Source of the DNA: Planctomycetota bacterium
Lineage (GTDB): Bacteria > Planctomycetota > Phycisphaerae > SM23-33
Assembly: GCA_034190305.1 (NCBI GenBank)
Contig: JAXHSV010000003.1
Span: 1-35,780 of the forward strand
Direction of reading: 5' to 3'
Length of the DNA: 35,780 bases
Position 1 is the stretch's first letter. Each line of letters starts with the position of its first letter. Of this stretch, positions 14,072 to 27,826 are shown in pieces. The notes under the pieces are model-generated. The model saw nothing but the letters and a program-made list of their open reading frames with translations, had not been told where the DNA came from and ran no database searches. The position numbers and the translations under genes are program-made.

Positions 14072-14163
14072 GTTGAACCATACCTCACTTTGGGGAGATA
14101 TTGACTATTGATTCGTAAAAAGAGTTTCCAACAGGGGGATTACGAAAATACCCCGTAGCAGTT

Positions 14164-14192
14164 TTGCCTGTCGGCGATCTGTATTTTACATT
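14164..14192 (+). promoter_or_regulatory. Putative sigma70-type promoter upstream of the riboswitch
   Basis: TTGCCT-N17-TACATT about 50 nt before the aptamer. Confidence 0.4.
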
Positions 14193-14242
14193 GTATGTGT
14201 TGCGCGGCCTTGTACGTAGGAGTCGCGTGCAGAAAGAAAATG

Positions 14243-14351
14243 TCCCCGAAAAGGCGTCCCTGCCGGTGAGCGTTCCGGCGGGTCGCAAAGTTACGGGAGT
14301 CGAGAGGTCTTTTTTTTCGGACCTTTCGGGTCAGCCGGGCTGCCGAAGGGG
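14243..14351 (+). promoter_or_regulatory. c-di-GMP-I (GEMM-I)-like riboswitch aptamer, variant
   Basis: CGAAAAGGC, then P2 stem CCTGCCGG/CCGGCGGG, junction TCGCAAAG, P3 closed by AGCCGGGCT, then GCCGAA; P1 CCCCG/CGAAGGGG. Lies upstream of a pilus-like operon that contains an HD-GYP gene. Confidence 0.72.
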
Positions 14352-14455
14352 CTTTCACTAGCGAAGTTTCGCTTCAGTGAACGGTTCCTCTGTGGGTGTG
14401 TATTCCATTTCCCTTCAGCCTTGCGAATGTTTGCCAACAATATCTGCATTTTAGT

Positions 14456-14482
14456 TAAGGCGCGCCGTTACGCAGTCGATAC
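14456..14482 (+). promoter_or_regulatory. Putative sigma28 (FliA)-like promoter
   Basis: TAAG-N15-GTCGATAC versus the consensus TAAA-N15-GCCGATAA. Confidence 0.4.
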
Positions 14483-14615
14483 GACAATGGTTCTGGTGGA
14501 GTATGGTTCTCAAACGCAGAAATGGAGGGAATTGCTATTGAGAGTAATGGAACGTACGTAATTCGTCGGAAATCGTTTTATGAACGTCAATGACACGCAA
14601 AGTGGAGGTGTAACA

Positions 14616-15068
14616 ATGAGTAACAGAACAGGTTTTACATTGGTTGAGATTTTGATTGTCGTGATTATTCTGGGTATTCTCGCGGCAATCGTAATCCCGC
14701 AGTTCACGGAGGCCTCGCAGGATGCCCGGGAGTCCGCCCTGGTTTCAGACCTTCAGACGTTCCGCAGCCAGATCGAACTGTACAAGATTCAGCACAAGGA
14801 CGCGCTGCCCGGCGCAGGAACGGCCAGTTTCGTCGCTGCCATGACAGGTCAGACGGATATTGATGGGGCCGTCGGCACAGACTACGGTCCGTATCTCCAG
14901 AAGATGCCGACCAACCCGTTCAACAACCTGGACACGGTTACGGTCGAAGCCGGCGTCGGCAGTCTCGGGGACGACAGCACCGGCTGGCACTTTAATACCA
15001 GCAATGGGCAGGTTCACGCCAACGACGACGATTCTACCAGCGACGGTACTGCCCATACGGCTTTGTGA
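14616..15068 (+). CDS. Type IV prepilin-like / GspG-like protein 1 (candidate major pilin)
   Basis: Class III signal peptide MSNRTG|FTLVEILIVVIILGILAAIVIPQF; strong GGAGGT RBS; YGPYLQKMPTNPFN motif. Confidence 0.88.
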   Translation: MSNRTGFTLVEILIVVIILGILAAIVIPQFTEASQDARESALVSDLQTFRSQIELYKIQHKDALPGAGTASFVAAMTGQTDIDGAVGTDYGPYLQKMPTNPFNNLDTVTVEAGVGSLGDDSTGWHFNTSNGQVHANDDDSTSDGTAHTAL

Positions 15069-15108
15069 TCGGGCTGACGGTCCGGCGTATCGTTTCAGGA
15101 ACATGGTC

Positions 15109-15146
15109 GAGGCTTCCGACGGCGAAACATCGCCGCCGGATGCCTC
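15109..15146 (+). other. GC-rich stem-loop after pilin gene 1 (mRNA stabiliser or partial terminator)
   Basis: GAGGCTTCCGACGGCGA-AACA-TCGCCGCCGGATGCCTC forms an imperfect hairpin with no U-tract. Confidence 0.5.
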
Positions 15147-15212
15147 TGCCTAATCACGGAACAGTTCAGTCCGGAAGTTGCGCCGGGTGCGCCAAAAAAG
15201 GAAAACGCTAAA

Positions 15213-15719
15213 ATGGGTCGGCAAAAGGCATTCTCGCTGGTGGAACTTCTGATCGTAGTGGTGCTTTTAGGCATCCTGGCGGCGATTGTCCTTCCGAAGT
15301 TTTCCAACGCCTCGGCCGTTGCACGGGCCAGTATGCTCGCCGACACCCTGCGACTCTTTAGGACGCAATTGCCGGTCTTTGAAGCACAGCACCGCGGCGT
15401 AGCGGCGGGTTATCCAGACGGCGACACCAGCGCGACACCCACCGAAGCTACTTTCGTGCTCCACATGACCAAGGCCTCCAACGACTCCTTCCAGACTGCC
15501 GAACCCGGCACGCCCGGATTCGATTACGGGCCTTATATGAGGCGAATCCCGGAAAATCCTATCAACGAGAAGAATACCGTCAAGATAATCGCCAACAATG
15601 AAGCCTTCCCGGACGACGGAGATAACTCTTACGGGTGGATATACCAACCCGCAACGTTGCTGTTCAAGGCCGATTCCCCCGGAACAGACGATAATGGAAA
15701 GGCGTATTTCGACTATTAA
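15213..15719 (+). CDS. Type IV prepilin-like / GspG-like protein 2 (paralog of protein 1)
   Basis: MGRQKA|FSLVELLIVVVLLGILAAIVLPKF; YGPYMRRIPENPIN motif. Confidence 0.88.
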   Translation: MGRQKAFSLVELLIVVVLLGILAAIVLPKFSNASAVARASMLADTLRLFRTQLPVFEAQHRGVAAGYPDGDTSATPTEATFVLHMTKASNDSFQTAEPGTPGFDYGPYMRRIPENPINEKNTVKIIANNEAFPDDGDNSYGWIYQPATLLFKADSPGTDDNGKAYFDY

Positions 15720-15818
15720 TAACCGATAGCAAGTAGTTAGTCGCCGGTGAGGACAGGTGTTCTTTTCCGGTCTATCGGACAGGAATAAGGTTTTTATGAT
15801 GCCTGGCGGTTTTACAAA

Positions 15819-16190
15819 ATGAAGGAGCTCAAGATGAACGGAACACGGGAAAGAACCGGAGGCGGAACAGTCAAAATCGACGGTTACACCCGCTTTTGCC
15901 TCTCGGCGATAGTTGTGCTTCTGGCGATTCTGATTGTCGGGTTGTGGGCTGAAGGCCCGATTTCCCCCATACCCGATGCCGCCGGAGCAGGCGTCGCGAA
16001 GACGCCGCCCGATGTCCTGCCAAATGCCGGAGCGCAGCGTTTGGCCATGATTAAGGCCATCGGCGCGACCAACGATAAACTTGACAAGATAATCGACCTG
16101 CTGAAAAGCGGCGAGATACGCGTCGGCCTGGTTGAGGAAGGTAAAGGAGACAAGGCGCCCGACAATGTCCATAAACTCCCGAAAAAATAG
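15819..16190 (+). CDS. Hypothetical single-pass membrane protein with a C-terminal amphipathic helix (alternative start 15834)
   Basis: Hydrophobic segment FCLSAIVVLLAILIVGLW; co-directional and overlapping the next gene; AAGGAG precedes ATG 15834. Confidence 0.7.
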   Translation: MKELKMNGTRERTGGGTVKIDGYTRFCLSAIVVLLAILIVGLWAEGPISPIPDAAGAGVAKTPPDVLPNAGAQRLAMIKAIGATNDKLDKIIDLLKSGEIRVGLVEEGKGDKAPDNVHKLPKK

Positions 16191-16686
16191 ATTCATCCCG
16201 GCAGCTCGTCGGTACAGTCGAACGGGCTTTACGCTAATCGAGTTGATTGTGGCGTTGGTCGTATTGGCCGTTGCCGCAGCGATAATAATCCCGTACGCCA
16301 CCGGAACCAGCGGCTTTCAGGCCTCCGCCGCAGCCAGGATGATTATGTCCGACCTGGAGTACGCCCAGAATCAGGCCATTACTACGCAGACGCCGGTGTC
16401 GGTAACGTTCGCCGTTTCCAGTAATTCTTATACTGTCTCTAACGCAAGTGGAACCCTGATCCATCCGATTAGCAAACAGGCGTATGTGGTCGATTTCGAC
16501 ACGAGTAGGGGTTTTGGGAATGTGTCGATGTCATCGGCCAATTTCGGCGGCGCGTCGGTTGTTACGTTCGACGCCCTTGGCGCACCGGACAATAACGGGA
16601 CGGTTACCGTTGTCGCCGGTGCGCATACTTACACCGTAACCGTCGCGCCGATAAGCGGGCGCGTAACAGTCTCCGGAAACGACTGA
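16165..16686 (+). CDS. FimT/GspH-like minor pilin
   Basis: RTG|FTLIELIVALVVL, then AAARMIMSDLEYAQNQAI, VTFDALG and a C-terminal VTVAPISGRV. Confidence 0.85.
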   Translation: MSINSRKNRFIPAARRYSRTGFTLIELIVALVVLAVAAAIIIPYATGTSGFQASAAARMIMSDLEYAQNQAITTQTPVSVTFAVSSNSYTVSNASGTLIHPISKQAYVVDFDTSRGFGNVSMSSANFGGASVVTFDALGAPDNNGTVTVVAGAHTYTVTVAPISGRVTVSGND

Positions 16687-16800
16687 CCGTTTCAGAGACC
16701 TGTTGCGTGGCTCTTAGAAAAGGAGCACGCAAACGCGGAAAAGAAACTCCTCGGGCACCTGCCGGCAGGCAGGAATACCGGCGCGTTTGCGTAAAAGGCG

Positions 16801-18060
16801 ATGATGTTCGAGTTGCTTTCAAGAACCAGGTACGGGCAGATCGGTCTGGACATAGGCGCCGAAAGCGTCAAGATGTTGCAACTGGCTGCGATGCGGGGCA
16901 AACCATTTGTCGCAGCCGCTGCTCTGCGCCGCCTTCCCGAAGACGCCACCAGGCCTGACGCCGACCAGCATATGCGACAACGAATCCTCGTAGATACCGT
17001 CCGTGAGATGCTCGCAAACGGAGTGTTCCATGGACGGAGCGTCGTCAGTTGTTTGCGGGCCGACGAAATAGACATCAGGAATGTTCGCCTGCCTCATGTC
17101 TCTGACGACGAACTGGCTTCAGCGGTTGAGCGTGAATGTCAGGAGCGGTTTGGCTTCAGGGTTTCGGACGATCGGATTCATTGGATCAAGGCCGGTGAAG
17201 TCCGACATGGCGCCGATGCGCGAAATGAAGTCATATTGATTGCCGTTCCTGATGACGTCATTGGTCGGCACCTCGATATGCTTTCGAAGATGCGTTTGAT
17301 CCCCGCCCACATGGATTCCGAGCCGACCGCCCTGTTTGGCGCATACGAGAGATTTCTCCGGCGGGCGTCCGATGACGCATCCGTTACCGTGATCGTTGAT
17401 ATAGGACTGTCCTGCACAAAGGTAATCGTAGCCAGAGGCAAGGCGATTCTGATGATTAAGACCATCGATATAGCCGGTCGGAAATTTGACGAAAGTGTCG
17501 CCAAAGAACTGAATATGAGTTACGCCGAAGCAGCCTCTGTTCGCAGGCGCATATTAGAGACCGGAGACGTCGATTCGACAAAAACAGCACGTTCCGACCC
17601 ACAACCTGAAATGGAAGGCAAGGTGGAATGGTCCGTCTTCGACGCCATTCGCGAGCAGGTGGAGGCGCTGGGGCGTGAGATAAGTCAGTGCCTGCGTTAT
17701 TGCTCGGTTACGTTCCGGGGGCTTCGCCCGAGAAAGATAACACTTTCCGGGGGAGAAGCCTGCAACCGGCGCCTGGTCGAATCGCTGAACGAGTACCTGG
17801 ATTGTGAATGCGTGGTGGGTCAGCCTCTTCGGGGTATCGATCTTGGCGGGGTTGAAATGGGCGGCGAGCGGCGAGGTGAACTGGCGGGGTGGTCGGTAGC
17901 GGCGGGCCTGGCCATTCGCGGACTTTACGGAAAGATTGCCAAAGACGTTAACAACAACACAAGCACAACGTCAATGACGACGAATTGTTCACATAAAACT
18001 ACTTCCGCCGGCGGATTGAAACTTGTCGCTTCCGGCGTCTCCAGACAGGAAAGTGAATGA
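16801..18060 (+). CDS. pilM: PilM-like actin-fold pilus assembly protein
   Basis: IGLDIGAESVKMLQL, VIVDIGLSCTKVIV, ITLSGG and WSVAAGLAIR motifs. Confidence 0.85.
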   Translation: MMFELLSRTRYGQIGLDIGAESVKMLQLAAMRGKPFVAAAALRRLPEDATRPDADQHMRQRILVDTVREMLANGVFHGRSVVSCLRADEIDIRNVRLPHVSDDELASAVERECQERFGFRVSDDRIHWIKAGEVRHGADARNEVILIAVPDDVIGRHLDMLSKMRLIPAHMDSEPTALFGAYERFLRRASDDASVTVIVDIGLSCTKVIVARGKAILMIKTIDIAGRKFDESVAKELNMSYAEAASVRRRILETGDVDSTKTARSDPQPEMEGKVEWSVFDAIREQVEALGREISQCLRYCSVTFRGLRPRKITLSGGEACNRRLVESLNEYLDCECVVGQPLRGIDLGGVEMGGERRGELAGWSVAAGLAIRGLYGKIAKDVNNNTSTTSMTTNCSHKTTSAGGLKLVASGVSRQESE

Positions 18061-18827
18061 TGTCGGCAACGAACCCAATTGGAACGAACAAAGCGGTTCC
18101 CTCGAAAGCAGCGGTAAACTCCGCGCAAGGAGGCGATTCCGTCGGCGCCGACGGTCAGGATGTTCTTGCAGTTCCGTCGCACCAGGTGGAGTTCCTTCCG
18201 AAGTATATCCGGCATCAGCGCCGCCGGCGTCGCCGGCTTATTCGCCAGGGATATCTCCTGGTGGCGTGTTTGGTGGTCATGGGGATACTGACCTGCGTTC
18301 GCGCCGAACGGGCCGCACAGGCGCGCAACAACCTGGCAATGCTTGAAAAAAGCAGTAACAACCTGAAAAAACATGCAGCGAAGATAACGTCGCTGGAACG
18401 TCAGATGTCCGACCTGCTGATCAGGAAACAAATCAACGAGGAACTTGGCTGCCGAACTGATTGCACTGTCGTGCTGGCGGAATTGTGCCGGATAACGCCG
18501 CCGGGCATAGTCCTGGTCTCACTTGATTTGAAGACAGTTGGAGTCTCTGCTGAGGATTCGGAACAACCGTCGCCCGCCACCGGTCATCACGACTTGAAGC
18601 CGGGCGTTGTCGGGGAAAAGGGGCGCAAAGCCGACGCGGAAATCGCTCGGCGCGCTCGGATGGTAATTACCGGTCTGGCGCCTAATGACGTGGATGTAGC
18701 CAACTTCATCGGGCAACTCTCCGCCAGCACCCTCTTGGATAACGTGAACACGGATTATACCAGAACGGTTGTCTTTCGCGGGCAGTTGGTGCGTGAGTTT
18801 CAGACAAAATGCTACCTGGCCCGGTAA
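18057..18827 (+). CDS. pilN: PilN-like protein
   Basis: VEFLP (INLLP-like PilM-binding motif), Arg run, one TM helix, coiled coil, and ITGLA...VANFIGQL; ATGA overlap with pilM. Confidence 0.78.
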   Translation: MMSATNPIGTNKAVPSKAAVNSAQGGDSVGADGQDVLAVPSHQVEFLPKYIRHQRRRRRRLIRQGYLLVACLVVMGILTCVRAERAAQARNNLAMLEKSSNNLKKHAAKITSLERQMSDLLIRKQINEELGCRTDCTVVLAELCRITPPGIVLVSLDLKTVGVSAEDSEQPSPATGHHDLKPGVVGEKGRKADAEIARRARMVITGLAPNDVDVANFIGQLSASTLLDNVNTDYTRTVVFRGQLVREFQTKCYLAR

Positions 18828-18870
18828 TCCGGGCAGCGTAAAACAGAGTAAATTAGGGAGAATTATCGGC

Positions 18871-19479
18871 GTGTTCTTTTCACGCGACAACCTGAGGACC
18901 CCAAATCGCAATAAATCGCGATTTGGGGACTCCCTGATAGTCCTGGGGATTCTGGCGGTGATTACTACCACCTATTTTGCGGTTGTGTATCGCGCCCAGT
19001 CAGCCGTCGCCGAAAACATCTCCGCCCGGACCGCAGAGGTCAAAAACCTCCTCGAAACCGACGCCGCGCAGTCCTGTCGCGTTCCGCAGATGCTCCGTGA
19101 GATCAAACAGATGAAACATCGCTGTAACGAAAAAGACCTGAACCGGCGGCTAACCGAACGACAGGAACTGGAGGGTTTCCTCCACGAAATCACATCGGGG
19201 CTTTCCGGGGAAAAACTTTCCATCCGGTCAATCCATCCGGGAAATCCGTCCTCAAACCCACGTTATAACCGCCTCCCGATTACGCTGAAATTCGAAGGCG
19301 ATTTCCTGACTTTGGGGAGGTTCCTCAACCGGATCGATGATATGACCCGATTGACGCGAATCGAACGTTTGGCAATCAGTTCCGACCACAATAATGAAAA
19401 TCTCGAAATCGAAATGGGCATGAATATCTATTTCACGGAACAGCGAACGAAAACCGACCAAACGGGAGTTTGGAAATGA
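18871..19479 (+). CDS. pilO: PilO/GspM-like protein (start uncertain, ORF open from 18769)
   Basis: One TM helix, then LPITLKFEGDFLTLGRFLNRIDDMTRLTRIERL; GTG 18871 has AGGGAG upstream. Confidence 0.78.
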   Translation: MFFSRDNLRTPNRNKSRFGDSLIVLGILAVITTTYFAVVYRAQSAVAENISARTAEVKNLLETDAAQSCRVPQMLREIKQMKHRCNEKDLNRRLTERQELEGFLHEITSGLSGEKLSIRSIHPGNPSSNPRYNRLPITLKFEGDFLTLGRFLNRIDDMTRLTRIERLAISSDHNNENLEIEMGMNIYFTEQRTKTDQTGVWK

Positions 19480-20138
19480 ACGGCGCGAAGGTGAAACTCG
19501 CGGATTTCATAAGCCGGCTCAAGGCAGAGATACGGCAGGATAAGAAAAAGACAACCATGCTGGTAATTCTGCTGATAGTAACCGGTATCGTCGGCGGCAG
19601 GTTTGTTGTTACTCACGGTCCTGCCGACGACGCCTCCGGCGCCGCCCAAAGACTGATTTCCGATACTGGCGCCGGCGGGGGACGAAAAAGTGAGCGTCAA
19701 ATCCGACGGGTCGATCTCGCCTCAATGGATCGGACCATAAACCGCGATCTTTTCCGGCCCGACATCAAATATTTTCCGCCCGCCGACCAGGCCGATAAAC
19801 ATCCTGTTGCGAACCGGCCTGACCAGGCCCGGCAGATCGCTCAGGCCAAACAACCGGAACATCGACGTCCGACGGACCATGCCGGTTCGATTCGCGCCCG
19901 GGCGGAAGCGCTGAGCCTGACGTGCACCATGCTTGGTCGATCGCCGGCGGCATTAATAAACGGAAAAGTCCTTCGGGCCGGAGAGATGATAAACGGATTT
20001 CATCTCAAGTCCATCGCCTCCGACCACTGTATCGTCGCCGCCGAAGGCGTGGACGTAAAACTGCAAATGAGAAAAAAAGCGATCAGCGATCAGCGATCAG
20101 CGATCAGTAAAATCGCACAAAAAGAAGAAACAGATTAG
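19476..20138 (+). CDS. PilP/GspC-like protein
   Basis: N-terminal TM helix, RDLF (RDPF-like), and a C-terminal beta domain ALINGKVLRAGEMINGFHLKSI; position between pilO and the secretin; ATGA overlap. Confidence 0.65.
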   Translation: MNGAKVKLADFISRLKAEIRQDKKKTTMLVILLIVTGIVGGRFVVTHGPADDASGAAQRLISDTGAGGGRKSERQIRRVDLASMDRTINRDLFRPDIKYFPPADQADKHPVANRPDQARQIAQAKQPEHRRPTDHAGSIRARAEALSLTCTMLGRSPAALINGKVLRAGEMINGFHLKSIASDHCIVAAEGVDVKLQMRKKAISDQRSAISKIAQKEETD

Positions 20139-20193
20139 AACTCGGCATTCTTTTTATCTTTTGCTGATAGATGACAGCTGAATGCTGAATGCT
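20078..20193. repeat. Heptamer tandem repeat (AGCGATC)x4 with an imperfect inverted counterpart
   Basis: 20078-20105 is (AGCGATC)4; 20163-20193 is GCTGATA-GATGACA-GCTGAAT-GCTGAAT-GCT. Confidence 0.8.
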
Positions 20194-20298
20194 TTGTTGC
20201 CGACGGAGGCACAAAGAAATTGACAATAACGGGTACTGCTACAGAAGCGGATTCGCCCTGAGGGGCGGGGCGGGTCAACCTGAATAAGGAGCAAAGCG

Positions 20299-22224
20299 AT
20301 GAAAAAGATTACAGAATTACCTTCCGCATTGGTTTTGGCGTGCGTCACGACGGGTGGGCGTCTGTACCGACGAACGGGACGAGTAATCGCGCCGGCAGTT
20401 TTGGTGATACTGCTGGCCGCTGGTTTGGCCGTCGCCCAGCAGGCCGGTCCCGACACATCCAAACCTGCCGACAATAAAGTCAAATTCGACAGGAAAGGAG
20501 GCGTGGATGAACTCCATGTTCGAGGTGTGGACCTCTGTCAGGTTCTCCAGATGCTCAGCATCCCCAACAAGGTCAACATTATTACCAACAAAGAAGTCAG
20601 CGGAACAGTAACAGTCGATCTGTACAATGTAACATTCACAGAGGCCCTTGATGCGGTGTTGCGATCTGCGGGGTTTGAATACGTCCGCAAGGACAACTTC
20701 GTTTATGTGTACACGCCGAAACAGTTTGCGGAAATACTTGCAGCCGAACGCAAACTACAACTGGCGACGAAGGTCTTCAAACTCAATTACATCACAGCCG
20801 AGGACGCCAAGACCCTTATAAAACCGGCAATGAGCGAGGACGGCGCCATTGAGACGACTCCTGCCGCAGAGATAGGCGTGGTGTCGGACGCTGAAGACGC
20901 CGGTGGAAACGCACTGGCGACCGAAGACGTCCTGGTGGTGAAGGATTACCCCGAAAACCTCAAAAAAATCACCGCCATCCTCAGCCGGCTTGACGTCCGC
21001 CCTCAACAGATTCTTATCGAGACGACCATCCTGCGAGCATCGTTGACCGAAAACAACGCACTGGGTATTGATTTCAACGCATTGGCGGGTATCGACTTCC
21101 GCACGATGGGCTACACCAGCACCGACCTGACGGACCTGACACCCGGCGCCGTACCGGCAGCGGAACTGGACCGGCCTCGGGCAAACTTCAACACCGATTT
21201 CGCCGCAACCGTTCCTCCGGGCGGAGTTTCCATAGGGTTTGTCTATAACCAAGTCAGGGTGCTGCTTCGCGCGCTGGAAACCATTACGGACGTCGTCGTC
21301 TTGGCCAATCCTAAACTCCTGGTTATGAACAAGCAACGAGGTGAAGTCATGATCGGGAACAAGGACGGTTACCTGACTACGACCGTTACGGAAACAACCG
21401 CTACGCAGACAGTTGAATTCCTCGAAACCGGTACTCAACTGATCGTCAGGCCTTACATCGGAAGCGACGGTTACATCCGCCTTGAAATCCACCCGGAAGA
21501 CTCCACCGGCGGACTTACCGCGGATCGGTTGCCTTTCGAACAGACCACCGAGTGCACTTCCAATGTACTGGTCAAGGACGGACACACGATCGTCATCGGC
21601 GGGCTGTTCCGCGAACGCACCACCAGCGGACGGTCACAGGTGCCCGGACTGGGCAACATTCCCATCGCCGGCGTGCTGTTCCGCGAACGCTCCGACGCGA
21701 CAGTCCGCGAAGAGGTGATAATCCTTATCACCCCCCACATCATCAAGCATCCCACCGACGAGGCTGTCTCCGAACAGTACAAAGACGAGATAGACCACAT
21801 TCGCCTGGGACTGCGCAGGGAAATGATGTGGTTCGGTCGAAGCCGCCTGGCGCAGACCCAGATGCGATGGGCAAGACATCATCTCGCCGGAGGAAACCGC
21901 TCCAAGGCGCTGTGGGACCTGAACATGACACTGTCGCTTGAGCCGAGAATGTCCGAGGCAATCAGGCTCAAGGAGCGTCTGACAAAAGAGGCCATCTGGG
22001 CGCATGAACCGCGGAACTCCGACACCGGTTACGTCATTGAGCGGATGATCATGTCCGAAATAGGACAACCTCCCGAGAAGGTCATGGTTCCGCTCAAGCC
22101 CATGGATGGAATGCTCCTCGAGAAGGAAATTCGCGATGCCCTCGGAATAGGTCGGCGATTGGAACTGCCTTTGGAACAATCGGGCGGCGCTCCCGTCCCA
22201 CCTGCAACCAGGGCGAAGGAATAA
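20299..22224 (+). CDS. Outer-membrane secretin (PilQ/GspD family) with a C-terminal helical extension
   Basis: Signal peptide ending AVA|Q, STN/N-domains, LDVRPQQILIE, LANPKLLV, GTQLIVRP, VKDGHTIVIGGLF, VPGLGNIPIAGVLF and EVIILITPHII. Confidence 0.92.
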   Translation: MKKITELPSALVLACVTTGGRLYRRTGRVIAPAVLVILLAAGLAVAQQAGPDTSKPADNKVKFDRKGGVDELHVRGVDLCQVLQMLSIPNKVNIITNKEVSGTVTVDLYNVTFTEALDAVLRSAGFEYVRKDNFVYVYTPKQFAEILAAERKLQLATKVFKLNYITAEDAKTLIKPAMSEDGAIETTPAAEIGVVSDAEDAGGNALATEDVLVVKDYPENLKKITAILSRLDVRPQQILIETTILRASLTENNALGIDFNALAGIDFRTMGYTSTDLTDLTPGAVPAAELDRPRANFNTDFAATVPPGGVSIGFVYNQVRVLLRALETITDVVVLANPKLLVMNKQRGEVMIGNKDGYLTTTVTETTATQTVEFLETGTQLIVRPYIGSDGYIRLEIHPEDSTGGLTADRLPFEQTTECTSNVLVKDGHTIVIGGLFRERTTSGRSQVPGLGNIPIAGVLFRERSDATVREEVIILITPHIIKHPTDEAVSEQYKDEIDHIRLGLRREMMWFGRSRLAQTQMRWARHHLAGGNRSKALWDLNMTLSLEPRMSEAIRLKERLTKEAIWAHEPRNSDTGYVIERMIMSEIGQPPEKVMVPLKPMDGMLLEKEIRDALGIGRRLELPLEQSGGAPVPPATRAKE

Positions 22225-22309
22225 AAAGGTGTTTTTTTGGCTGAATTTGTCAATTTGGGAAAAATACGGAGATTAGGCAACCCCAGGCGTGATTCAGAAA
22301 GGATTGGAT

Positions 22310-23572
22310 ATGAAACATTATACGATATTACTGTTAGCGGTATCGGTACTGAGCGGCTGCAGCCTGATGCAAAAAGAAAAGGTCAAGTCATACAAGGAGT
22401 GGCACCAGGCCCGTTCCCGCATAATCTGTGGTATAGGCGAAGAGCACCTCAAGGCGGGAAGCCTCGATAAGGCCCAGTCCTGTGCTATGGAATCACTGAA
22501 CCTCAACAGCGATTACCTCCCCGCCAGGATACTTCTGGCGAAGACCCTGTTGGGCAACGGGCGTTACGAAGAGGCCGACGAACAACTGCAACACGCCGAA
22601 ACGCTCCGGCTGAGCCTGAAGAAAGACTCCTCCTCCGCCTCGCCGGGTGGAGCCGAGATTGCTTACCTTCGCGGCGAAGCCCTGGAAAGGACAGGTAAAT
22701 ATGCCGAAGCGTTGCAGTGCTACCAGAAGGCTCGCGCCCTGAACCCGTCCAACGATATGTATGTAATGGCGTCGGCGGAAGTTCTGGTTTCGATGGGCAA
22801 GCCCAGGGGCGCGCTGGAACTTCTGGAAGTCCGTCTTCAGCGAATTGGAGCCGGTGGCGAACCGTCGATGCTCGTTCTGGCAGGAGAAATTGCAATGTTG
22901 GCGGGCGATTACACACAAGCCGCCGATTTCTTCCAGCAGCGCCTCGACATGACACAAGACCACCATGCCGATAAATCAGGAAAGTCTGTTCGTGAATCGC
23001 TGGCCAAGGCGCATTTCTTTGCCGGTAATTACAGACAGGCAATCGAGTCGCTCAAACAGATTACCAACAATTTCGAATCGTCGCCTTGCTGGGTTCAGAT
23101 CATGATGGGCGACAGTTACATGGCGCTGAATCGCCCGCGCGACGCGAAGGCTGCGTATGAATCTGCCATAAAAATCGAACCCGACGACTGGCCGGTATGG
23201 CTGTCCCTCGCCAAGGCAGCCGTTGCCGACGGCGACACCCGTCGCGGAACCACCGCGGGTCTGCGAGCGATAGAACTGGTCGGCAACGACCGCACTACCA
23301 GCGGCGGAAATAAGGATCGCCTGGAAATATGTATAGTAACCGCCTACGCGATGCTGGCGGAAAACCGCCCGGAAGATGCAATGAAGGTTCTGGCAGGATC
23401 AGCAAAGGAGAATCCAAACGATCCGATGTTGTGGTGCATGTTGGGCAGGTGTTACTCGGCACAGGGACTCGGTGAACGCGCCGCTGCATGTTACATGGCG
23501 GCGTTGCGGGCGGATCCGGACAATCGACTGGCAAAAAACCTGTTAACTTGCCTCGATCGAAACAGGGATTAA
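22310..23572 (+). CDS. TPR-repeat lipoprotein (possible pilotin)
   Basis: Lipobox LSG|C after a short hydrophobic leader; many TPR-like units (for example GEALERTGKYAEALQCYQKARALNP). Confidence 0.82.
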   Translation: MKHYTILLLAVSVLSGCSLMQKEKVKSYKEWHQARSRIICGIGEEHLKAGSLDKAQSCAMESLNLNSDYLPARILLAKTLLGNGRYEEADEQLQHAETLRLSLKKDSSSASPGGAEIAYLRGEALERTGKYAEALQCYQKARALNPSNDMYVMASAEVLVSMGKPRGALELLEVRLQRIGAGGEPSMLVLAGEIAMLAGDYTQAADFFQQRLDMTQDHHADKSGKSVRESLAKAHFFAGNYRQAIESLKQITNNFESSPCWVQIMMGDSYMALNRPRDAKAAYESAIKIEPDDWPVWLSLAKAAVADGDTRRGTTAGLRAIELVGNDRTTSGGNKDRLEICIVTAYAMLAENRPEDAMKVLAGSAKENPNDPMLWCMLGRCYSAQGLGERAAACYMAALRADPDNRLAKNLLTCLDRNRD

Positions 23573-23726
23573 GCCACCCAAGTCCGACAGTCAGAAAAGT
23601 ATAAGAGGCTATAACTATGGCGGCCCGCCCCGCCTTCCGACGTTCCTGTGTCGCCGAATCTACGGAGCGCCGGCAATCTGGTGAAGGCGGTTAATTCGGT
23701 AATCCGGCGACTGATGGGAAAAGATT

Positions 23727-25208
23727 GTGACAACGGCTAAGCGAGTGGGTCTGGCAAGCGTGGTGTTGATTTCCCTCGGCGCCAGCGCAGCATACTACGC
23801 TACCACAATGGCTTTACGTGGATACCAGGTGCATACCCGAACACTGGGATACCTCGTTCTGGGCCTGATTGCTGCGCTGACTTGCCTGATCCTGGTGGTC
23901 TTCTGGCGAAATGTTCATCGCACCGTAAGCAGCATCGCAGATCAACTGGAGCAAATGGCCGATAAACGCCGGATCGGATTGCTGATGGTCAACGGCAGCG
24001 ATGAACTGGCCCAGATAACCGGCCCCTTGAACCATTTACTGGCCGTTATCAGGGATGAATTCGGACGACTCCGGTCCGAAAAACGAGAACTGCAAATCCA
24101 GTCCCGCATTGCCGGAGCCGAAAAGCAACACACCGAGGCGATCGTTTTTTCCATCTCCGACGCGGTTATCGTTACCAATCGTTTCGACGAGATAATCCTC
24201 GCCAACGCATCGGCTGAAAAACTGATGGGCTTCAGCCTGAAGCACAGCATGAGGAAAAACATAGATCATGTAATCCACGACGGTACACTGGTGAGGCTGA
24301 TACGCGAGACCCGCAGCGGCGGATACAGCGAGGCGTCGACGACAGAACACGATGACCGGAAGCCCTGTTTTACGCGCAAGGTGGTCGAGCATACCATCGA
24401 CCAGAAAGGCCAACCAAGGACCTTCAACGCGACCCTTTCCTGTGTAATGACACCCGAAGGGAAAGTCTCCGGCGTTGTGGCCGTCTTGCACGACGTAACG
24501 CGCGAGAGGGAAATATCGCAGATGAAAACGGATTTCGTCTCCAGCGTCTCGCACGAACTTCGTACACCACTATCGTCGATCAAGGCGTATGTGGAGATGC
24601 TCCTTGACGGTGAGGCCGGCGATGAAAAAACGCAGCGTGAGTTCCACGAGATAATCGCCGGCGAGACGGACCGCCTCAATCGCCTTATCGAGAATATACT
24701 CAATATTTCGCGGATAGAGTCCGGCGTCGTCCGAGTTGTCCGCGAATCGATGAGCCTGACTGAAGTATCCAGGCAGGCGCTGGACGTGGTGGCTCCACAG
24801 GCTAAAGTCAAGAACATCACGTTGGTCGAACGCCTGGCGCCGATTTGTTACCAGGTAGAGGCCGACAGGGACATGATCTACCAGGTAGTACTTAATCTGA
24901 CTGGTAACGCCATCAAATACACCCCCGCCGGCGGGACGGTAACCGTCTCAACGAGCATTGATGAACACCGTGGTATGGCAGTCTGCGAAGTTGCCGATAC
25001 GGGCGTCGGAATCGACAGCGAAGACCTTCCCCGCATCTTTGAGAAGTTCTACCGAGCAGAAGGGCATACAAAAATGGCTAAAGGGACGGGGCTGGGACTG
25101 ACCCTGGTCAAACACATTATTGAATCGGTGCACAATGGAAAATTGTCGGTTACCAGCGAAATCGGCGTCGGTAGCACGTTCAGTTTCGAGTTGCCGATTT
25201 TGCAATAA
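23727..25208 (+). CDS. Membrane sensor histidine kinase (2 TM, HAMP-like, PAS, HisKA, HATPase)
   Basis: SISDAVIVTN...ANASAE PAS pattern, H-box VSHELRTPL, N-box NAIKYT, DTGVGI, IFEKFYR and GTGLGL. Confidence 0.93.
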   Translation: MTTAKRVGLASVVLISLGASAAYYATTMALRGYQVHTRTLGYLVLGLIAALTCLILVVFWRNVHRTVSSIADQLEQMADKRRIGLLMVNGSDELAQITGPLNHLLAVIRDEFGRLRSEKRELQIQSRIAGAEKQHTEAIVFSISDAVIVTNRFDEIILANASAEKLMGFSLKHSMRKNIDHVIHDGTLVRLIRETRSGGYSEASTTEHDDRKPCFTRKVVEHTIDQKGQPRTFNATLSCVMTPEGKVSGVVAVLHDVTREREISQMKTDFVSSVSHELRTPLSSIKAYVEMLLDGEAGDEKTQREFHEIIAGETDRLNRLIENILNISRIESGVVRVVRESMSLTEVSRQALDVVAPQAKVKNITLVERLAPICYQVEADRDMIYQVVLNLTGNAIKYTPAGGTVTVSTSIDEHRGMAVCEVADTGVGIDSEDLPRIFEKFYRAEGHTKMAKGTGLGLTLVKHIIESVHNGKLSVTSEIGVGSTFSFELPILQ

Positions 25209-25213
25209 AAAGC

Positions 25214-25283
25214 AGGGACTTGGGACTTGGGACTAGGGACTTGGAAAAGAAAATCCACAATCCGCAATCCGCAATCCGCAATC
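25214..25283 (+). repeat. Two heptamer tandem arrays, (GGGACTW)x4 and (AATCCRC)x4, over the response-regulator start
   Basis: GGGACTT-GGGACTT-GGGACTA-GGGACTT followed by AATCCAC-AATCCGC-AATCCGC-AATCCGC-AATCG. Confidence 0.8.
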
Positions 25284-25675
25284 GAAAAGTACTGGTGGCC
25301 GACGACGAAGCGCACATTCGGCACGTGGTTAAAATAAAACTGACTCAAGCCGGATACGAGGTCCTTACCGCAATGGACGGGGAAGAGGCCCTCGAACTGG
25401 CCATAACCGAAAAACCTGACGTAATTATCACAGATTATCAGATGCCTTACATGAGCGGCCTGGAGTTGTGCACGCACCTGCGGAAAAATGAACCGACCAA
25501 AGATATACCGATACTGATGCTTACAGCCCGCGGGTTCGACATCACCGAACATGAAATGGCGGAGGTGGGGATACGCGGCGTGCTAAGCAAACCCTTCAGC
25601 CCTCGTGAAGCGCTGCGAAGAGTGCAGAATTTTCTGAAGACCACCGGTCAGGATGATCTGACGGAGACCGCGTAA
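25220..25675 (+). CDS. Single-domain response regulator (receiver); TTG start at 25220 or 25241
   Basis: VLVADDE, PDVIITDYQMPYMSG, MLTA and KPF motifs; no output domain. Confidence 0.9.
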   Translation: MGLGTRDLEKKIHNPQSAIRNRKVLVADDEAHIRHVVKIKLTQAGYEVLTAMDGEEALELAITEKPDVIITDYQMPYMSGLELCTHLRKNEPTKDIPILMLTARGFDITEHEMAEVGIRGVLSKPFSPREALRRVQNFLKTTGQDDLTETA

Positions 25676-27471
25676 TGCCGGCCCACTCACCGCAGATAAC
25701 AGAAACAAAGAAAGAAGGATCATCACGCAAAGAGGTTCTTCAGACGGAGTTTTTCCTCCGGCGTCTGGCTGAACAACTGCGCAAACTGGGGATGAGCATA
25801 TCGTTCTGGGACTCAAACGGTTCGATATTGACGACTCCGAGTTTCCAGGGACAGTTCTGCTGCCTGATGTGCGGGCAGAAAGGAGTCTGCCTGGAAGCAC
25901 TAAGTGAAATTGCCGGGAAAGTGTCCCGAGAAGGTCGCAGGGAGATTACAACGTCTCCGAATGGATGCCGCATCTTTTCCGCGCCTATGTATCAGCGTCG
26001 TCGATTGACCGGAGCGGTAGTAGCATGCTTCCCTACGCTTCAGACTATCGAAAGCGAACAGTTCCTCCGCACCTGCAGCCGGACACACCTGGATACCGAA
26101 GCGATGGCTTCATTATGTCGCCGGGAGGCCGTGTACACGGATCGACAGGCCGAAAACATGTGCAGCATCCTGGAGTGGATAATTCAGAGCGAGCAGGCAA
26201 GAGAAGTTAGCAGGGAGGAACTGGCGGCCCTTTCGTCCAATCTGGCTAACACCTACGAGGAACTCTCGCTGCTTTACAGCATCAGCGGGTCGATGAAAGT
26301 TACGCGCGGCGCGAAGGGATTCTTCGAGAATCTTTGCAACGAACTGCTGGAGGTGATGCATGTTCAAACGGCGGCGGTCGTGTTGCATCCCCGAAGTTGT
26401 CAGGATCAACCGAACCGCAACAGCGAATCAGGCGACCGGGTTGTCATTGCCGGCAAACTGCCCCTTACGAAAGAGCAGCTTATCGGAATATCCCAGTGGT
26501 ACATTGCTCCCCAAGCCACGAAACATCGAAGTACTGATTCGGCCGCCGGGAATGAGGGCGGGAACATATTTTCCACGATAGTCGATAACCGGTTCTTCAG
26601 GCACGCCGAACATCTCGGTCCGGACATTGAGCGGATTCGCACTCTTGCAGCGGCGCCGTTGACGATCGCGGGCCGGTACCGGGGTGTTGTAATCGCCGCA
26701 AACAAAGTCAACGGCGAATTCGACAGCGCTGATCTGAAACTCATATCAGCCATCAGCGGTCAGGCGGCGGTGTTCCTTGAAAACCACGATCTCTACGAAG
26801 ACGTCCAGGACCTGTTGATGGGCGTATTGCACGCCCTGACGGCCAGTATCGACGCCAAGGACCCGTACACCTGCGGTCATTCGCATCGCGTTGCAATTAT
26901 TTCCAGGAAACTGGCGCAGTTGAGCGGCTTCGACGAAAACCGCGTCGGTCGGATATATCTGGCCGGACTACTGCACGATATCGGGAAGATCGGCGTATCC
27001 GAAACCGTACTGCAAAAGTCCGGCGTGTTGACCGGTCCGGAATTTGAATCTATGCGGCGACATCCCGGGATAGGCGCAACGATATTGGGCGGCATCCGCC
27101 AAATGAAGGACCTTATTCCCGTTTTACTCCACCACCACGAGCGCCCCGACGGTGGCGGATACCCTGCGGGCCTGTCGGCGGGCGAAATCCCCGTCGAGGC
27201 GCTGATCGTGGGACTCGCCGACAGTTTAGATGCGATGACCTCCAGCCGGACATACCGAAACGCCATGCCGCTGGAGGTTGTCATTACCGAAATTCGTCAA
27301 TGCAGCGGGACGCAGTTTGATCCTCGATTGACGGAGTTGCTGTTGTCGCTGAACCTGGAGGATTTTCTGACGCAAATCCGCACTGCCGCAATGAACGACT
27401 CGAAGACGTTTGAAAGATTGCCCGTCTCGTCGCTCTGTTCAACAAAGGAACTGTCGCAAAACGCAGATTAG
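25675..27471 (+). CDS. HD-GYP cyclic-dinucleotide phosphodiesterase with an N-terminal Cys-rich (PocR-like) domain and a GAF domain
   Basis: DAKDPYTCGHSHRVA, LLHDIGKIG, HHERPDGGGYP, ADSLDAMTSSRTYR and GTQFDP motifs; GAF end ANKVNGEFDSADLKLI; TAATG overlap with the receiver gene. Confidence 0.92.
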   Translation: MPAHSPQITETKKEGSSRKEVLQTEFFLRRLAEQLRKLGMSISFWDSNGSILTTPSFQGQFCCLMCGQKGVCLEALSEIAGKVSREGRREITTSPNGCRIFSAPMYQRRRLTGAVVACFPTLQTIESEQFLRTCSRTHLDTEAMASLCRREAVYTDRQAENMCSILEWIIQSEQAREVSREELAALSSNLANTYEELSLLYSISGSMKVTRGAKGFFENLCNELLEVMHVQTAAVVLHPRSCQDQPNRNSESGDRVVIAGKLPLTKEQLIGISQWYIAPQATKHRSTDSAAGNEGGNIFSTIVDNRFFRHAEHLGPDIERIRTLAAAPLTIAGRYRGVVIAANKVNGEFDSADLKLISAISGQAAVFLENHDLYEDVQDLLMGVLHALTASIDAKDPYTCGHSHRVAIISRKLAQLSGFDENRVGRIYLAGLLHDIGKIGVSETVLQKSGVLTGPEFESMRRHPGIGATILGGIRQMKDLIPVLLHHHERPDGGGYPAGLSAGEIPVEALIVGLADSLDAMTSSRTYRNAMPLEVVITEIRQCSGTQFDPRLTELLLSLNLEDFLTQIRTAAMNDSKTFERLPVSSLCSTKELSQNAD

Positions 27472-27526
27472 CGCGGACGGTAAAAGTAAATTGCTTTATG
27501 AATGAAAGACGCCTCCGGCGAAGACA

Positions 27527-27826
27527 TTAATCGTCGTCCGCTTCGTGCTTAGGAGGGCTCAAATCCCCCGGCCTGATAACGTTCATTTCACATTCCGAAG
27601 CAATGTCTAGAAATTCCTGATGATGAAGTTGCTCCAGTTGCTTTCCTCTGCCTTTGAGTTTTTCATTGAATTTTATGCACTTTTCCTGCATCACCTCGTG
27701 TGTGTCGGCGCTTCCGCCGACGATATGAAAATTATCGCCTCTAGTCGCGCGGAAATGACCGTCGTCGTTATCCAGGCCGACGCCCAACAGCATTGCCTTC
27801 TTTTCCGGCTTGGGAGTTTTCACCAT
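27527..27826 (-). CDS. Conserved hypothetical protein (PVC-type)
   Basis: LLGVGLDNDDGHxRxTRGDNFHIVGGS...THEVMQEKCIKFNEKL pattern recalled from Planctomycetes hypotheticals (not searched); TATAAT on the minus strand upstream. Confidence 0.7.
   Translation of the reverse strand: MVKTPKPEKKAMLLGVGLDNDDGHFRATRGDNFHIVGGSADTHEVMQEKCIKFNEKLKGRGKQLEQLHHQEFLDIASECEMNVIRPGDLSPPKHEADDD

Follow-up and report, generated by a model that had tools for sequence, protein, structure and literature searches.

The window analysed here (the whole stretch of 35,780 nucleotides) probably contains a gene cluster for a type IVa-pilus-like filament (PilMNOP-secretin) that carries its own signalling trio of histidine kinase (HK), receiver (REC) and predicted HD-GYP phosphodiesterase and is headed by a GEMM-I riboswitch. 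The linkage of the trio to pilus genes is class-wide and evolutionarily tied, and the riboswitch is a family-restricted overlay on the cluster, found in one family and in a single further one.

Organisation of the gene cluster

The source is a metagenome-assembled genome (MAG) of Planctomycetota (GTDB lineage Bacteria; Planctomycetota; Phycisphaerae; SM23-33) in 379 contigs. Domain calls with Pfam and NCBIfam bore out the gene order given in the preliminary description, and between positions 14164 and 27471 a leader is followed by 13 co-directional genes, from pilin 1 to the HD-GYP gene, all of them intact (Table 1). The overlapping start and stop codons mentioned there were found as well: PilM and PilN overlap by 4 nt, PilO and the PilP-like gene by 10 nt, and the REC stop and HD-GYP start have TAATG in common, with a similar REC/HD-GYP overlap in many relatives. 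A convergent ORF after 27471 forms the 3' boundary of the unit. The true start of the GspH/FimT-like minor pilin is probably the ATG near 16165, and the TPR protein is a possible PilW/PilF-type pilotin. A heparinase II/III-like gene lies downstream of the cluster.

Table 1. Leader elements and genes of the filament cluster, in positions of the window
Feature	Position	Strand	Basis or remark
Sigma-70-like promoter (predicted), TTGCCT-N17-TACATT	14164..14192	+	would start the riboswitch transcript
GEMM-I (c-di-GMP-I) aptamer, divergent copy	14237..14357	+	RF03167, RF01051, both below gathering
Hairpin directly 3' of P1, no U-tract	14354..14381	+	same-genus leaders with differing sequences; MFE folds
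CCCTTC, weak candidate anti-P1 strand	14411..14416	+	complementary to P1 3' strand GAAGGG
Two-box promoter-like motif, AGTTAAG-N17-CGATA	14453..14481	+	conserved between aptamer and pilin
Major (pseudo)pilin 1, prepilin with G|FTLVE	14616..15068	+	N_methyl; GspG 56 bits (partial match), cut-off 88.85
Pilin 2	15213..15719	+	N_methyl
Small bitopic TM protein, no family	15819..16190	+	no Pfam/NCBIfam match; place kept in relatives
GspH/FimT-like minor pilin	16132..16686	+	GspH domain; N_methyl at residues 30-52
PilM, actin-like assembly protein	16801..18060	+	PilM_2; TIGR01175 117 bits, cut-off 133
PilN	18057..18827	+	PF05137
PilO	18769..19479	+	PF04350
PilP-like, named by position only	19470..20138	+	Pfam sub-threshold only; place kept in relatives
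Secretin, PilQ-like architecture	20299..22224	+	STN + Secretin_N + Secretin
TPR protein	22289..23572	+	TPR families; TIGR02521 PilW 76 bits, cut-off 154
Membrane-anchored PAS histidine kinase	23727..25208	+	PAS, HisKA, HATPase_c; 2 N-terminal hydrophobic segments (from translation)
Stand-alone receiver, CheY-like	25220..25675	+	Response_reg
PocR-GAF-HD-GYP phosphodiesterase (predicted)	25675..27471	+	HD_5, HD, PocR, GAF; HD + HHExxDGxGYP motifs

Type of filament

Genes for an assembly ATPase, a platform protein and a prepilin peptidase are missing from the cluster; T2SSE and T2SSF genes are located on other contigs of the source genome. The cluster could also be read as a T2SS-like system with a short pseudopilus, whose trio would tune secretion, e.g. 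of polysaccharide-degrading enzymes. The downstream heparinase II/III-like gene would fit this reading, GspG is the best model for pilin 1 and, with Geopilin domain 1, represents its nearest solved structures, the minor pilin has a GspH domain and relatives possess a weakly matching GspK-like gene; however, the separate coding of PilM, PilN and PilO follows the T4aP pattern. The secretin scores equally high with the GspD (218.3 bits) and PilQ (214.7 bits) models, below the cut-off in both cases, but the match runs the whole length of the PilQ model (6-428 of 428) and is confined to the C-terminal part of the GspD model. Furthermore, contig C335 carries a separate cluster with ATPase, platform protein and secretin, and no score for T4aP or T2SS families reaches the equivalog cut-off. 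A secretion system of this kind is regarded as unlikely.

The pilin complement differs in some relatives, and orthologues of pilin 2 occur in only some of them. Relatives carry genes for a PilV-like protein, a second minor pilin and the GspK-like protein between pilin 2 and the TM protein; these three are absent from the window, and the genome holds only paralogues with 29-40% identity, on contig C89.

The leader aptamer and its orthologues

At the gathering threshold, Rfam gave no match anywhere in the whole window. In E-value mode one clear match was obtained (14244-14348, RF03167, 30 bits, E = 7e-5; gathering score 59), and RF01051 scored the leader at 24.4 bits (gathering score 35). Although the window copy taken alone is sub-threshold, its earlier description as riboswitch-like was correct, and it can be identified as GEMM-I because of its orthologues at 24 loci that share its sequence class (class A), most of them above the gathering score, at 35-67 bits. 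All class A leaders lie upstream of the same conserved pilin; at each of the 11 riboswitch-bearing loci that were fetched, a pilin 1 orthologue with 54-77% identity lies 3' of the aptamer. A model of our own (R1), built from 23 orthologues with the window copy included, scores the window aptamer at 75.2 bits. The GEMM-I reading is further supported by covariation in 23 class A sequences, where 12 of 24 pairs show changes on both sides; 97.1% of cells are paired against 88.3% after shuffling (0 of 500 shuffles as high), and slid controls gave 28-51%.

GEMM-I is present above the Rfam cut-off in 14 of 41 relative genomes and in 45 of 99 genomes of the order. It is absent from the pilus cluster in most families, and also in one genome of the window's own family.

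Among the class A copies, that of the window is the most divergent and the lowest-scoring (24.4 bits versus 28-67 elsewhere). It alone among the 23 aligned has the junction AA replaced by GUC and a 3'-side G by U, a junction described as "highly conserved" in GEMM in the available part of PMC1950547. Such changes, together with the three missing minor-pilin genes, might mean that the riboswitch is here a relic in decay and the cluster partly disabled, so that the aptamer no longer binds its ligand, priming of the filament is impossible and expression comes from the internal promoter only. We doubt this: all 13 ORFs are intact, the MFE fold of the aptamer has the P1/P2/P3 architecture, and the cores GGC, CGCAAAG and GCUGCCGAA are retained, GGC, CGCAAAG and CC being those that contact the ligand. 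Of the junction changes, the first one, from A to G, is shared with the best-scoring relative (66.8 bits), other pilin complements occur in some relatives as well, and in a MAG of so many contigs the missing genes may sit in unassembled parts. Nevertheless, with its mutated junction and missing minor pilins, the local copy may be weakened.

Promoter-like motifs and expression platform

The predicted sigma-70-like promoter is of the form TTGnnn-N16-18-TAnnnT, which precedes the aptamer by 71-84 nt at 22 of the 24 class A loci; shuffled sequences would give about 2.1 such loci. The two-box motif is found in all 24, at 98-198 nt 3' of the aptamer; its boxes are always 17 nt apart, and the spacer between them is variable. 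A pilin paralogue without aptamer in another genome keeps it, and in other families it precedes the pilin at 8 of 15 loci that have no riboswitch. Judged from these sequences, the two-box motif, which may resemble sigma-28 promoters, is older than the riboswitch and is probably a second, riboswitch-independent pilin promoter. Because it lies between aptamer and pilin and is older, expression may be under riboswitch control only in part.

In the window, about 270 nt separate the aptamer from the start codon downstream, and the distance from the aptamer to the G|F cleavage site is 280-515 nt across loci. Neither a canonical terminator nor a platform sequestering the Shine-Dalgarno (SD) sequence was found in the class A leaders, where terminator-like sites (22) are no more frequent than expected by chance (17.2 +/- 3.5). 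The hairpin directly 3' of P1 has no U-tract and does not qualify as a canonical intrinsic terminator. At 14 of 24 loci, against about 5.1 expected, a CCCTTC-like word occurs between the aptamer and the two-box motif, and CCCTTC-GAAGGG pairing appears in several MFE folds.

The signalling trio and its linkage to pilus genes

Among riboswitch-bearing relatives with a contig long enough to show it, 5 of 5 have the trio 3' of the pilus genes, a sixth contig being cut inside HK. For comparison, 18 further loci were taken around the HK orthologue, from 14 families of the class. REC and HD-GYP genes directly follow the kinase in 18/18, pil genes adjoin the trio in 17/18 and the secretin is present in 15/18; the adjacency persists even where the secretin or PilMNOP has been lost. 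The preliminary description had proposed that unlinked signalling genes in relatives would speak against its reading, and they are linked. The HK orthologue was found in 153 of 251 genomes of the class, and in only 1 genome outside it in a sample of 201 genomes of the phylum, 5 of them from the class.

The trio might alternatively be a transcription unit of its own with a general housekeeping role for c-di-GMP, its position reflecting ancient synteny and no functional riboswitch loop existing. The gap between the TPR and kinase genes is 155 nt in the window and up to about 200 nt in some relatives, with GC-rich hairpins or a long inverted repeat, and such gaps leave room for separate transcription. 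At one exceptional locus the 13 kb upstream of the trio contain no pil gene, and the upstream QRPT-BPL synteny is also old, long-range synteny being generally well kept here. Against this stand the persistent adjacency to pil genes described above, a gap of only about 20-60 nt in a same-genus relative and the finding that, of all proteins of the cluster, the kinase is conserved best, so that we consider a separate trio quite improbable.

The HD-GYP protein, earlier predicted to be an active phosphodiesterase, has intact catalytic motifs: the HD and HHERxDGxGY residues are invariant in 24/24 HD-GYP sequences and the GYP proline is present in at least 90%. Likewise, D28, D29, D72 and K124 of the receiver are invariant in 23 orthologues. 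The source genome holds 5 GGDEF genes and 7 HD_5 genes. The first G of the invariant GGC, which we take to be the equivalent of G20 in Vc2 numbering, is present in 23 of 23 aligned class A aptamers. This position guides ligand selectivity, as stated in the accessible part of PMC9262584, and it is very unlikely that leader and enzyme use 3',3'-cGAMP instead of c-di-GMP, even though pilus-linked Geobacter GEMM-I riboswitches sense cGAMP (same source) and, among solved structures, the HD-GYP domain comes nearest to the cGAMP-specific phosphodiesterase 5z7c (E = 4.9e-32), since the c-di-GMP enzyme 4mcw is about equally close (E = 4.7e-30).

Proposed regulation

Binding of c-di-GMP to the aptamer would set the share of transcripts from the upstream promoter that continue into the pilin operon, and the older promoter-like motif would provide riboswitch-independent expression. 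The kinase would phosphorylate the receiver, and the HD-GYP enzyme would lower c-di-GMP, perhaps only in a local pool, thereby coupling filament production to the messenger. We infer that one transcript may run from the leader to the HD-GYP gene; if read-through reaches that gene, a feedback loop, positive or negative, would be closed. The built-in loop proposed in the preliminary description is thus upheld in part: leader orthology, linkage of the trio and the HD-GYP motifs favour it, whereas the second promoter-like motif, the lack of a terminator or SD platform and the lost junction adenosines do not. Owing to the internal promoter-like motif, both the loop and control of the whole transcript by the riboswitch can be put forward only conditionally.

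Comparison with known systems

In Clostridioides difficile, a c-di-GMP riboswitch is likewise placed before a major pilin gene, pilA1 of the type IV pilus operon, but it belongs to class II and the organism is a monoderm; to our knowledge, that operon contains no secretin, phosphodiesterase or two-component genes. A route from kinase through receiver to HD-GYP that affects type IV pili is represented by RpfC/RpfG of Xanthomonas (a sensor kinase and a REC-HD-GYP protein) and other HD-GYP regulators of twitching; in the window, by contrast, the receiver and the HD-GYP protein are encoded by two genes, translationally coupled and embedded in a pilus cluster, and the HD-GYP protein has PocR and GAF sensors of its own. 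Membrane kinases and single-domain receivers dedicated to the pilus are known from PilS-PilR and PilG/PilH of T4aP, whereas an NtrC-type DNA-binding regulator is absent here and the output appears to be the phosphodiesterase, plus the family riboswitch. With PilMNOPQ of T4aP and the PVC-type cluster of Akkermansia (Amuc_1098-1101) the cluster has PilM, PilN, PilO and the secretin in common, and its proteins match the Amuc_1101 and Amuc_1098 family models weakly, below equivalog cut-offs; it differs in its GspG/GspH-like pseudopilins and in the unlinked ATPase and platform genes.

Class A leaders share with the GEMM-I riboswitch RF01051/Vc2 of Vibrio cholerae the three helices, the invariant GGC...CGCAAAG...GCUGCCGAA cores and the 5' position before pilus and signalling genes (PMC1950547, in part), but the GNRA loop is often absent, P3 has long insertions and the platform is without the usual terminator. 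According to the same part of that 2007 paper, GEMM is common in "Plantomycetes" and its associated genes include pilM, pilO, pilQ, histidine kinase and HD-GYP genes. The earlier remark that no characterisation of the arrangement in Planctomycetota was known therefore needs narrowing: the parts are of known kinds, and it is the conserved combination of pilus cluster and trio, with the riboswitch in one family, that is not known to have been described. The pilM GEMM-I(b) element before pilMNOPQ of Geobacter is likewise a cyclic-dinucleotide riboswitch directly 5' of T4P assembly genes and acts as a terminator-based ON switch (PMC9262584, in part), whereas class A leaders have the G20-equivalent G and no evident terminator. 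It can be likened to a second GEMM element (class B) of the source genome, which lies just upstream of a PilM-like gene.

Gene content and type of the filament machine

The metagenome-assembled genome (MAG) to which the window belongs comprises 3.1 Mb on 379 contigs and is 91.6% complete, and the closest public relatives of the cluster's secretin come from MAGs labelled Planctomycetales, Planctomycetota or Phycisphaerae. The stretch 14164–27471 holds a leader and then 13 co-directional genes, and is followed by a convergent ORF. The gene list of the preliminary description was borne out by Pfam and NCBIfam domain calls, and the overlapping start and stop codons it had reported are real, amounting to 4 nt between PilM and PilN and to 10 nt between PilO and the PilP-like gene, and taking the form TAATG between the receiver and the HD-GYP gene.

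Features of the leader and genes of the cluster, in order along the forward strand
Feature	Position (nt)	Basis or remarks
Upstream promoter-like site	14164–14192	TTGnnn-N16-18-TAnnnT match
GEMM-I aptamer	14237–14357	class A copy of the window
Hairpin after P1 helix	14354–14381	without U-tract
Two-box motif	14453–14481	
Two prepilins		N_methyl; first also with sub-threshold GspG match (Pfam, NCBIfam)
Small TM protein		no family (Pfam, NCBIfam)
Minor pilin		GspH domain
PilM, PilN, PilO		separate genes; Pfam PilM_2, PilN, PilO
PilP-like protein		position alone
Secretin		STN, Secretin_N and Secretin
TPR protein		Pfam/NCBIfam
Histidine kinase	23727–25208	PAS-HisKA-HATPase; two N-terminal hydrophobic segments joined by a very short loop (translation)
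Receiver	25220–25675	stand-alone; canonical Asp, Thr, Lys
HD-GYP protein	25675–27471	PocR-GAF-HD_5

The combination that marks a type IVa pilus (T4aP), namely separate PilM, PilN and PilO together with a secretin and a prepilin-type major subunit, was found with the Pfam models. The equivalog cut-offs of NCBIfam were reached neither by the T4aP models (PilM 117.1 against 133; PilQ 214.7 against 284.35) nor by those of the type II secretion system, T2SS (GspG 56.4 against 88.85; GspD 218.3 against 351.35; GspH 28–30 against 80), and no family match to GspL, GspM or GspC was obtained in the cluster at E ≤ 0.01. As judged from sequence models, a T4aP-like machine is favoured by the separate PilM, PilN and PilO genes and by a PilQ model matched over its whole length; the features that speak for T2SS-like traits are the GspG- and GspH-like subunits, the weak GspK-like gene of relatives and an equally high GspD score. 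No T2SSE ATPase or T2SSF platform gene lies within the cluster; on other contigs the genome has 15 T2SSE and 10 T2SSF matches, including an ATPase-PilT-like-ATPase-platform set on contig C320, and secretins number three in the whole genome. Relatives carry three extra genes between the second pilin and the TM protein; their products are a PilV-like protein (~160 aa), a second minor pilin (~270 aa) and a GspK-like protein (~385 aa). No trace of them was seen in the 100-nt gap of the window (15719–15819) when compared with positions 1602–4207 of the relative's locus L035, and the genome has only 29–40% paralogues of these three, on contig C89.

Conservation and spread of the signalling genes

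The region up to 18 kb downstream was fetched for 11 class A aptamers, i.e. GEMM-I aptamers upstream of the major pilin gene. The complete order pilin(s), minor pilins, TM protein, GspH-like protein, PilM, PilN, PilO and PilP, secretin, TPR protein, kinase, receiver and HD-GYP protein was present in all five loci that were long enough (genomes G004, G006, G020, G014 and, from a different family, G039), and a sixth locus (G023) ends inside the kinase gene. The kinase is the best-conserved protein of the cluster, with 83% identity in G004 of the same genus and 54–65% across genera, and its N-terminal membrane segment is strongly conserved in the family. Of the 251 genomes of the class that were searched, 153 have an orthologue of the kinase at E ≤ 1e-90, almost always as a single copy. 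Only six matches at E ≤ 1e-70 came from a sample of 201 phylum genomes, namely the own genome, four more from its class and a single one from outside that class.

In 18 loci centred on the kinase and drawn from 14 families, the kinase gene is in every case directly followed by those of the receiver and the HD-GYP protein; pil genes adjoin this trio in 17 loci (the exception being L107) and a secretin is found in 15. The receiver stop and the HD-GYP start overlap by 1–4 nt in many of them. Since the linkage between pilus genes and trio is thus class-wide, the cluster noticed in the preliminary description is not only real but better supported than it was from the window alone. Our own model of the class A aptamer, built from 23 orthologues, located the aptamer in the window and in two contigs of the same genus only and gave nothing convincing in the 18 loci, and genome G067 of the same family has a complete cluster without GEMM-I. 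For these reasons the cluster of pilus genes and trio is, on comparative grounds, old and class-wide, and the riboswitch with its own promoter a later addition in family f1, plus G039 of family f10.

The gap between the TPR and kinase genes measures ~20–60 nt in G004 and up to ~200 nt, with hairpins, in other relatives, so that co-transcription may vary by lineage. In genome G016 this gap (L112, ~7210–7400) is occupied by a long perfect inverted repeat with arms of ~25 nt, and GC-rich hairpins occur there in other relatives. Reduced clusters were also seen: L106 (family f9) has pilins, secretin and trio without PilM, PilN, PilO and PilP, L109 and L110 (f1) have PilM and the trio without a secretin, and L107 (f11) has the trio alone. 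Genes for quinolinate phosphoribosyltransferase and a biotin/lipoate ligase precede the pilin both in the window (12153–14071) and in L095, L097, L098 and L105; as several distant families share this pair, the synteny around the cluster is very old.

Catalytic and phosphotransfer residues

The HD-GYP protein carries the motifs LLHDIGK and HHHERPDGGGYP, and hence both the HD dyad and the HHExxDGxGYP signature, and its metal-ligand and motif residues (H402, H434, D435, H463, H487, H488, E489, D492, G493, G495 and Y496) are the same in all 24 orthologues. Its nearest solved homologues, the cGAMP-specific 5z7c and the c-di-GMP-specific 4mcw, were retrieved with nearly equal E-values. The HisKA domain of the kinase contains SHELRTP and is accompanied by a HATPase domain, and D72 and K124 of the receiver are invariant in the receiver alignment. 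Because they are adjacent in all 18 loci, we infer that kinase and receiver form a pair. The predicted complex between the HD-GYP protein and the receiver, from their two family alignments, scored 0.02 against a mark of 0.32, with the controls left unfolded, a result that speaks neither for nor against binding. The genome encodes five GGDEF and seven HD_5 genes. The PocR-like N-terminal domain of the HD-GYP protein (25675–26200) has, at residues ~60–100, a cysteine-rich stretch (CC..C......C, then C), which is kept in the family, is not class-wide and might serve to sense metal or redox state.

Identity of the leader RNA

At the Rfam gathering thresholds no RNA family was found in the window. 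Positions 14244–14348 gave 30 bits with RF03167 (c-di-GMP-I-GGC; gathering threshold 59, E = 7e-5 for 901 bases searched) and the window copy gave 24.4 bits with RF01051 (c-di-GMP-I), under its threshold of 35, a family with which the class A orthologues score 28–67 bits, most of them above 35. The 'GGC' variant label was rejected, for the window reads CGCAAAG where the RF03167 consensus has CGCGAAG, and the higher score with that model therefore does not come from the diagnostic change of the variant. Matches in the leader to P11, SorX and mir-73 (E = 0.19–8.6) were dismissed as chance.

Matches to RF01051 at E ≤ 0.1 occur in 19 of 41 genomes of relatives, 14 exceeding the cut-off, and across the order at E ≤ 0.01 in 48 of 99 genomes, 45 exceeding it; those in the order all fall in family f1 (47/91), family f2 having none (0/7). 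Of the matched loci, 47 were examined (25 + 22) and divided by sequence into two classes. Class A (UCCCCGAAA...GCUGCCGAAGGGA) comprises 24 loci including the window, and the same conserved pilin (G|FTLVEILIVVIILGILAAIVIPQF...) follows every one of its aptamers at 280–515 nt. Class B (GGCGGAAAAAGGCAAACC...) comprises 20 loci, each with a PilM-like gene 15–90 nt downstream, and one more class B sequence was without such a gene by our own PilM pattern; the two remaining matches, both of genome G035, lie upstream of other genes.

Covariation was assessed on 23 class A aptamers, window included, the 155-nt copy of L032 being left out. The alignment folds as the P1, P2 and P3 helices of GEMM-I with 24 pairs, 12 of which have compensatory changes on both sides. 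Paired cells amount to 97.1% versus 88.3% in shuffles, and for all five measures 0 of 500 shuffles was as high, a figure that is not to be read as a probability as the aptamer sequences are related; slid controls, which retain the relatedness, gave 28–51% paired. Given this covariation and the same conserved pilin downstream, the leader of the window is, judging from its relatives, an orthologue of a real GEMM-I riboswitch, and provides an example of a sub-threshold Rfam match rescued through orthologues.

The window copy is itself divergent. The GGC, CGCAAAG and CC of GCUGCCGAA, which we take to be the ligand-pocket positions G20, A47 and C92 of Vc2, are invariant in the aptamer alignment, window included. 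Its junction reads GGC-GUC-CC versus GGC-(A/G/U)(A)(N)-C in the other 22, so that the conserved internal loop (AAA) is not found, and on the 3' side of the junction U replaces G. PMC1950547 describes this loop, which adjoins a 2-bp stem, as highly conserved. The A-to-G change at the first junction position recurs in the best-scoring relative (66.8 bits), and the minimum free energy (MFE) fold of the window RNA retains P1, P2 and P3 (z = −2.0).

Elements around the aptamer

Of the 24 class A loci, 22 have a promoter-like site 71–84 nt ahead of the aptamer, against ~2.1 expected from shuffles. On the 3' side of the hairpin that follows P1, a CCCTTC word complementary to the P1 3' strand occurs in 14 of the 24 loci (~5.1 expected). 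Terminator formation or sequestration of the Shine-Dalgarno (SD) sequence was not found in the MFE folds of the 24 leaders, which gave a modest anti-P1 signal only, and a consensus scan of 13800–28200 stayed at chance level for promoters (11 versus 8.3 ± 2.8) and terminators (22 versus 17.2 ± 3.5). Past the two-box motif and ahead of the true SD, the long 5' UTR contains a recurrent purine-rich word resembling GAAGGGAGGUG, seen at 14522–14535 and in the leaders of relatives; it is complementary to the CCCTTC word.

The two-box motif, A[AGT]T[TCG]AAG-N17-CGAT[AG], is present in all 24 class A loci, 98–198 nt past the aptamer (mostly 101–112), with fixed spacing and an unconserved spacer in which consistent pairing was not seen. 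In genome G003 the biotin-ligase gene is immediately followed by a tandem pilin paralogue (L017, ~590–1350) that keeps the motif and the 3' leader and is without both the aptamer and the upstream promoter box. Among 15 riboswitch-less loci of other families, eight have a loose form of the motif 119–425 nt ahead of the first pilin, where we estimate chance at ~0.02 per locus. The paralogue, the riboswitch-less loci and the unpaired spacer suggest that the motif is a DNA-level element independent of the aptamer.

Sigma-28 promoters have the consensus TAAA-N15-GCCGATAA, which the motif resembles. A FliA/WhiG-family sigma factor scored over the NCBIfam cut-off in 5/5 relatives tested; in the MAG of the window nothing exceeded the cut-off of TIGR02479, and only a truncated r2-r3-r4 sigma was met at a contig edge. 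The loose motif has 23 matches in the genome versus ~30 by chance (a hand estimate) and the 29-nt form eight, of which that of the window alone is upstream of a pilin. In its strict form, AGTYAAG-N17-CGATA, the motif hardly occurs outside the pilin leader in G004 and G087, and G051, G070 and G020 do not have this form. With the strict motif nearly confined to the pilin leader, the sigma-28 likeness gains no support from a regulon, and the idea of a FliA regulon was set aside as unsupported.

Proposed control of the cluster

Transcripts from the upstream promoter would carry the aptamer. Binding of c-di-GMP would stabilise the P1 helix and release the CCCTTC strand, and read-through or stability would be altered, with basal pilin transcription possibly arising from the two-box motif. 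The kinase would phosphorylate the receiver, and the HD-GYP protein would degrade c-di-GMP. Should read-through of the operon extend to 27471, feedback would be negative with an ON switch and positive with an OFF switch. The preliminary description had proposed that the messenger controls a transcript for both the filament machine and the enzyme destroying the messenger. That interpretation is supported in part: domain content, synteny, conserved catalytic residues, aptamer covariation and promoter-like motifs were established, and the feedback loop from messenger through riboswitch to phosphodiesterase is, as an inference, plausible. A probable internal promoter and the divergent aptamer weaken the case for it in the genome of the window. 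If true, the loop would be a compact and testable natural circuit, in which a messenger-sensing RNA governs filament genes that are joined to a messenger-degrading enzyme.

A further reading, which we consider improbable, makes the system a self-contained pilin homeostat. The two-TM kinase would monitor, in the inner membrane, either the pilin inventory or the activity of the filament, as PilS does for PilA; the output of the receiver would be the HD-GYP enzyme instead of a transcription factor, and the change in c-di-GMP would be read by GEMM-I riboswitches at the pilin gene and at a second PilM locus. Were it true, a loop of kinase, phosphodiesterase and riboswitch would replace the PilS-PilR/sigma-54 circuit.

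Relation to known systems

In many bacteria c-di-GMP is connected with type IV filaments, as a rule through protein receptors encoded elsewhere, and in C. difficile a c-di-GMP riboswitch is reportedly linked to pilA1 of the type IV pili. RpfC/RpfG and PilS-PilR are the systems for comparison. To our knowledge, surface appendages and second-messenger signalling are almost uncharted in this class. GEMM is common in 'Plantomycetes' according to PMC1950547, in which the GEMM-associated families include pilM, pilO, pilQ, hofQ, PAS, histidine kinase, HD-GYP and GGDEF, and PMC9262584 presents the riboswitch of Geobacter pilM as an ON switch for cGAMP. The arrangement was not found for Planctomycetota or Phycisphaerae in the literature searched, and the supplements of PMC1950547 may already include planctomycete pilin-linked GEMM copies. 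A GEMM-I-controlled pilus operon and the control of pili by HD-GYP or two-component proteins are thus known kinds, and the undescribed part is the conserved module of pilus, kinase, receiver and HD-GYP protein. Kinase, receiver and HD-GYP protein are co-inherited with pilus genes across a whole little-studied class of Planctomycetota, riboswitch control having been added in one family, and the conserved trio offers a ready metagenome marker for the machine.

Other observations in the genome

A second GEMM-I-like element is found on contig C113 of the same genome at 15222–15296 (L001, 1501–1575; L113), with 32.2 bits for RF01051. A PilM-like gene lies ~85 nt downstream of it, and behind this gene come those of a ParA/MinD-type ATPase and of a protein matching T2SSC weakly. 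The element is of class B, the same element that stands upstream of PilM(-PilN) in 20 loci of relatives. Within the window, 11719–12159 encodes a HEPN-domain protein (E = 2.1e-22); ahead of its gene lie small overlapping ORFs without a family, which may make this an HEPN/MNT-type pair. Past the cluster, a heparinase II/III-like/DUF4962 protein (28022–29887) is transcribed from a divergent AT-rich region, and the top promoter-like matches of the consensus scan are at 27859–27965.
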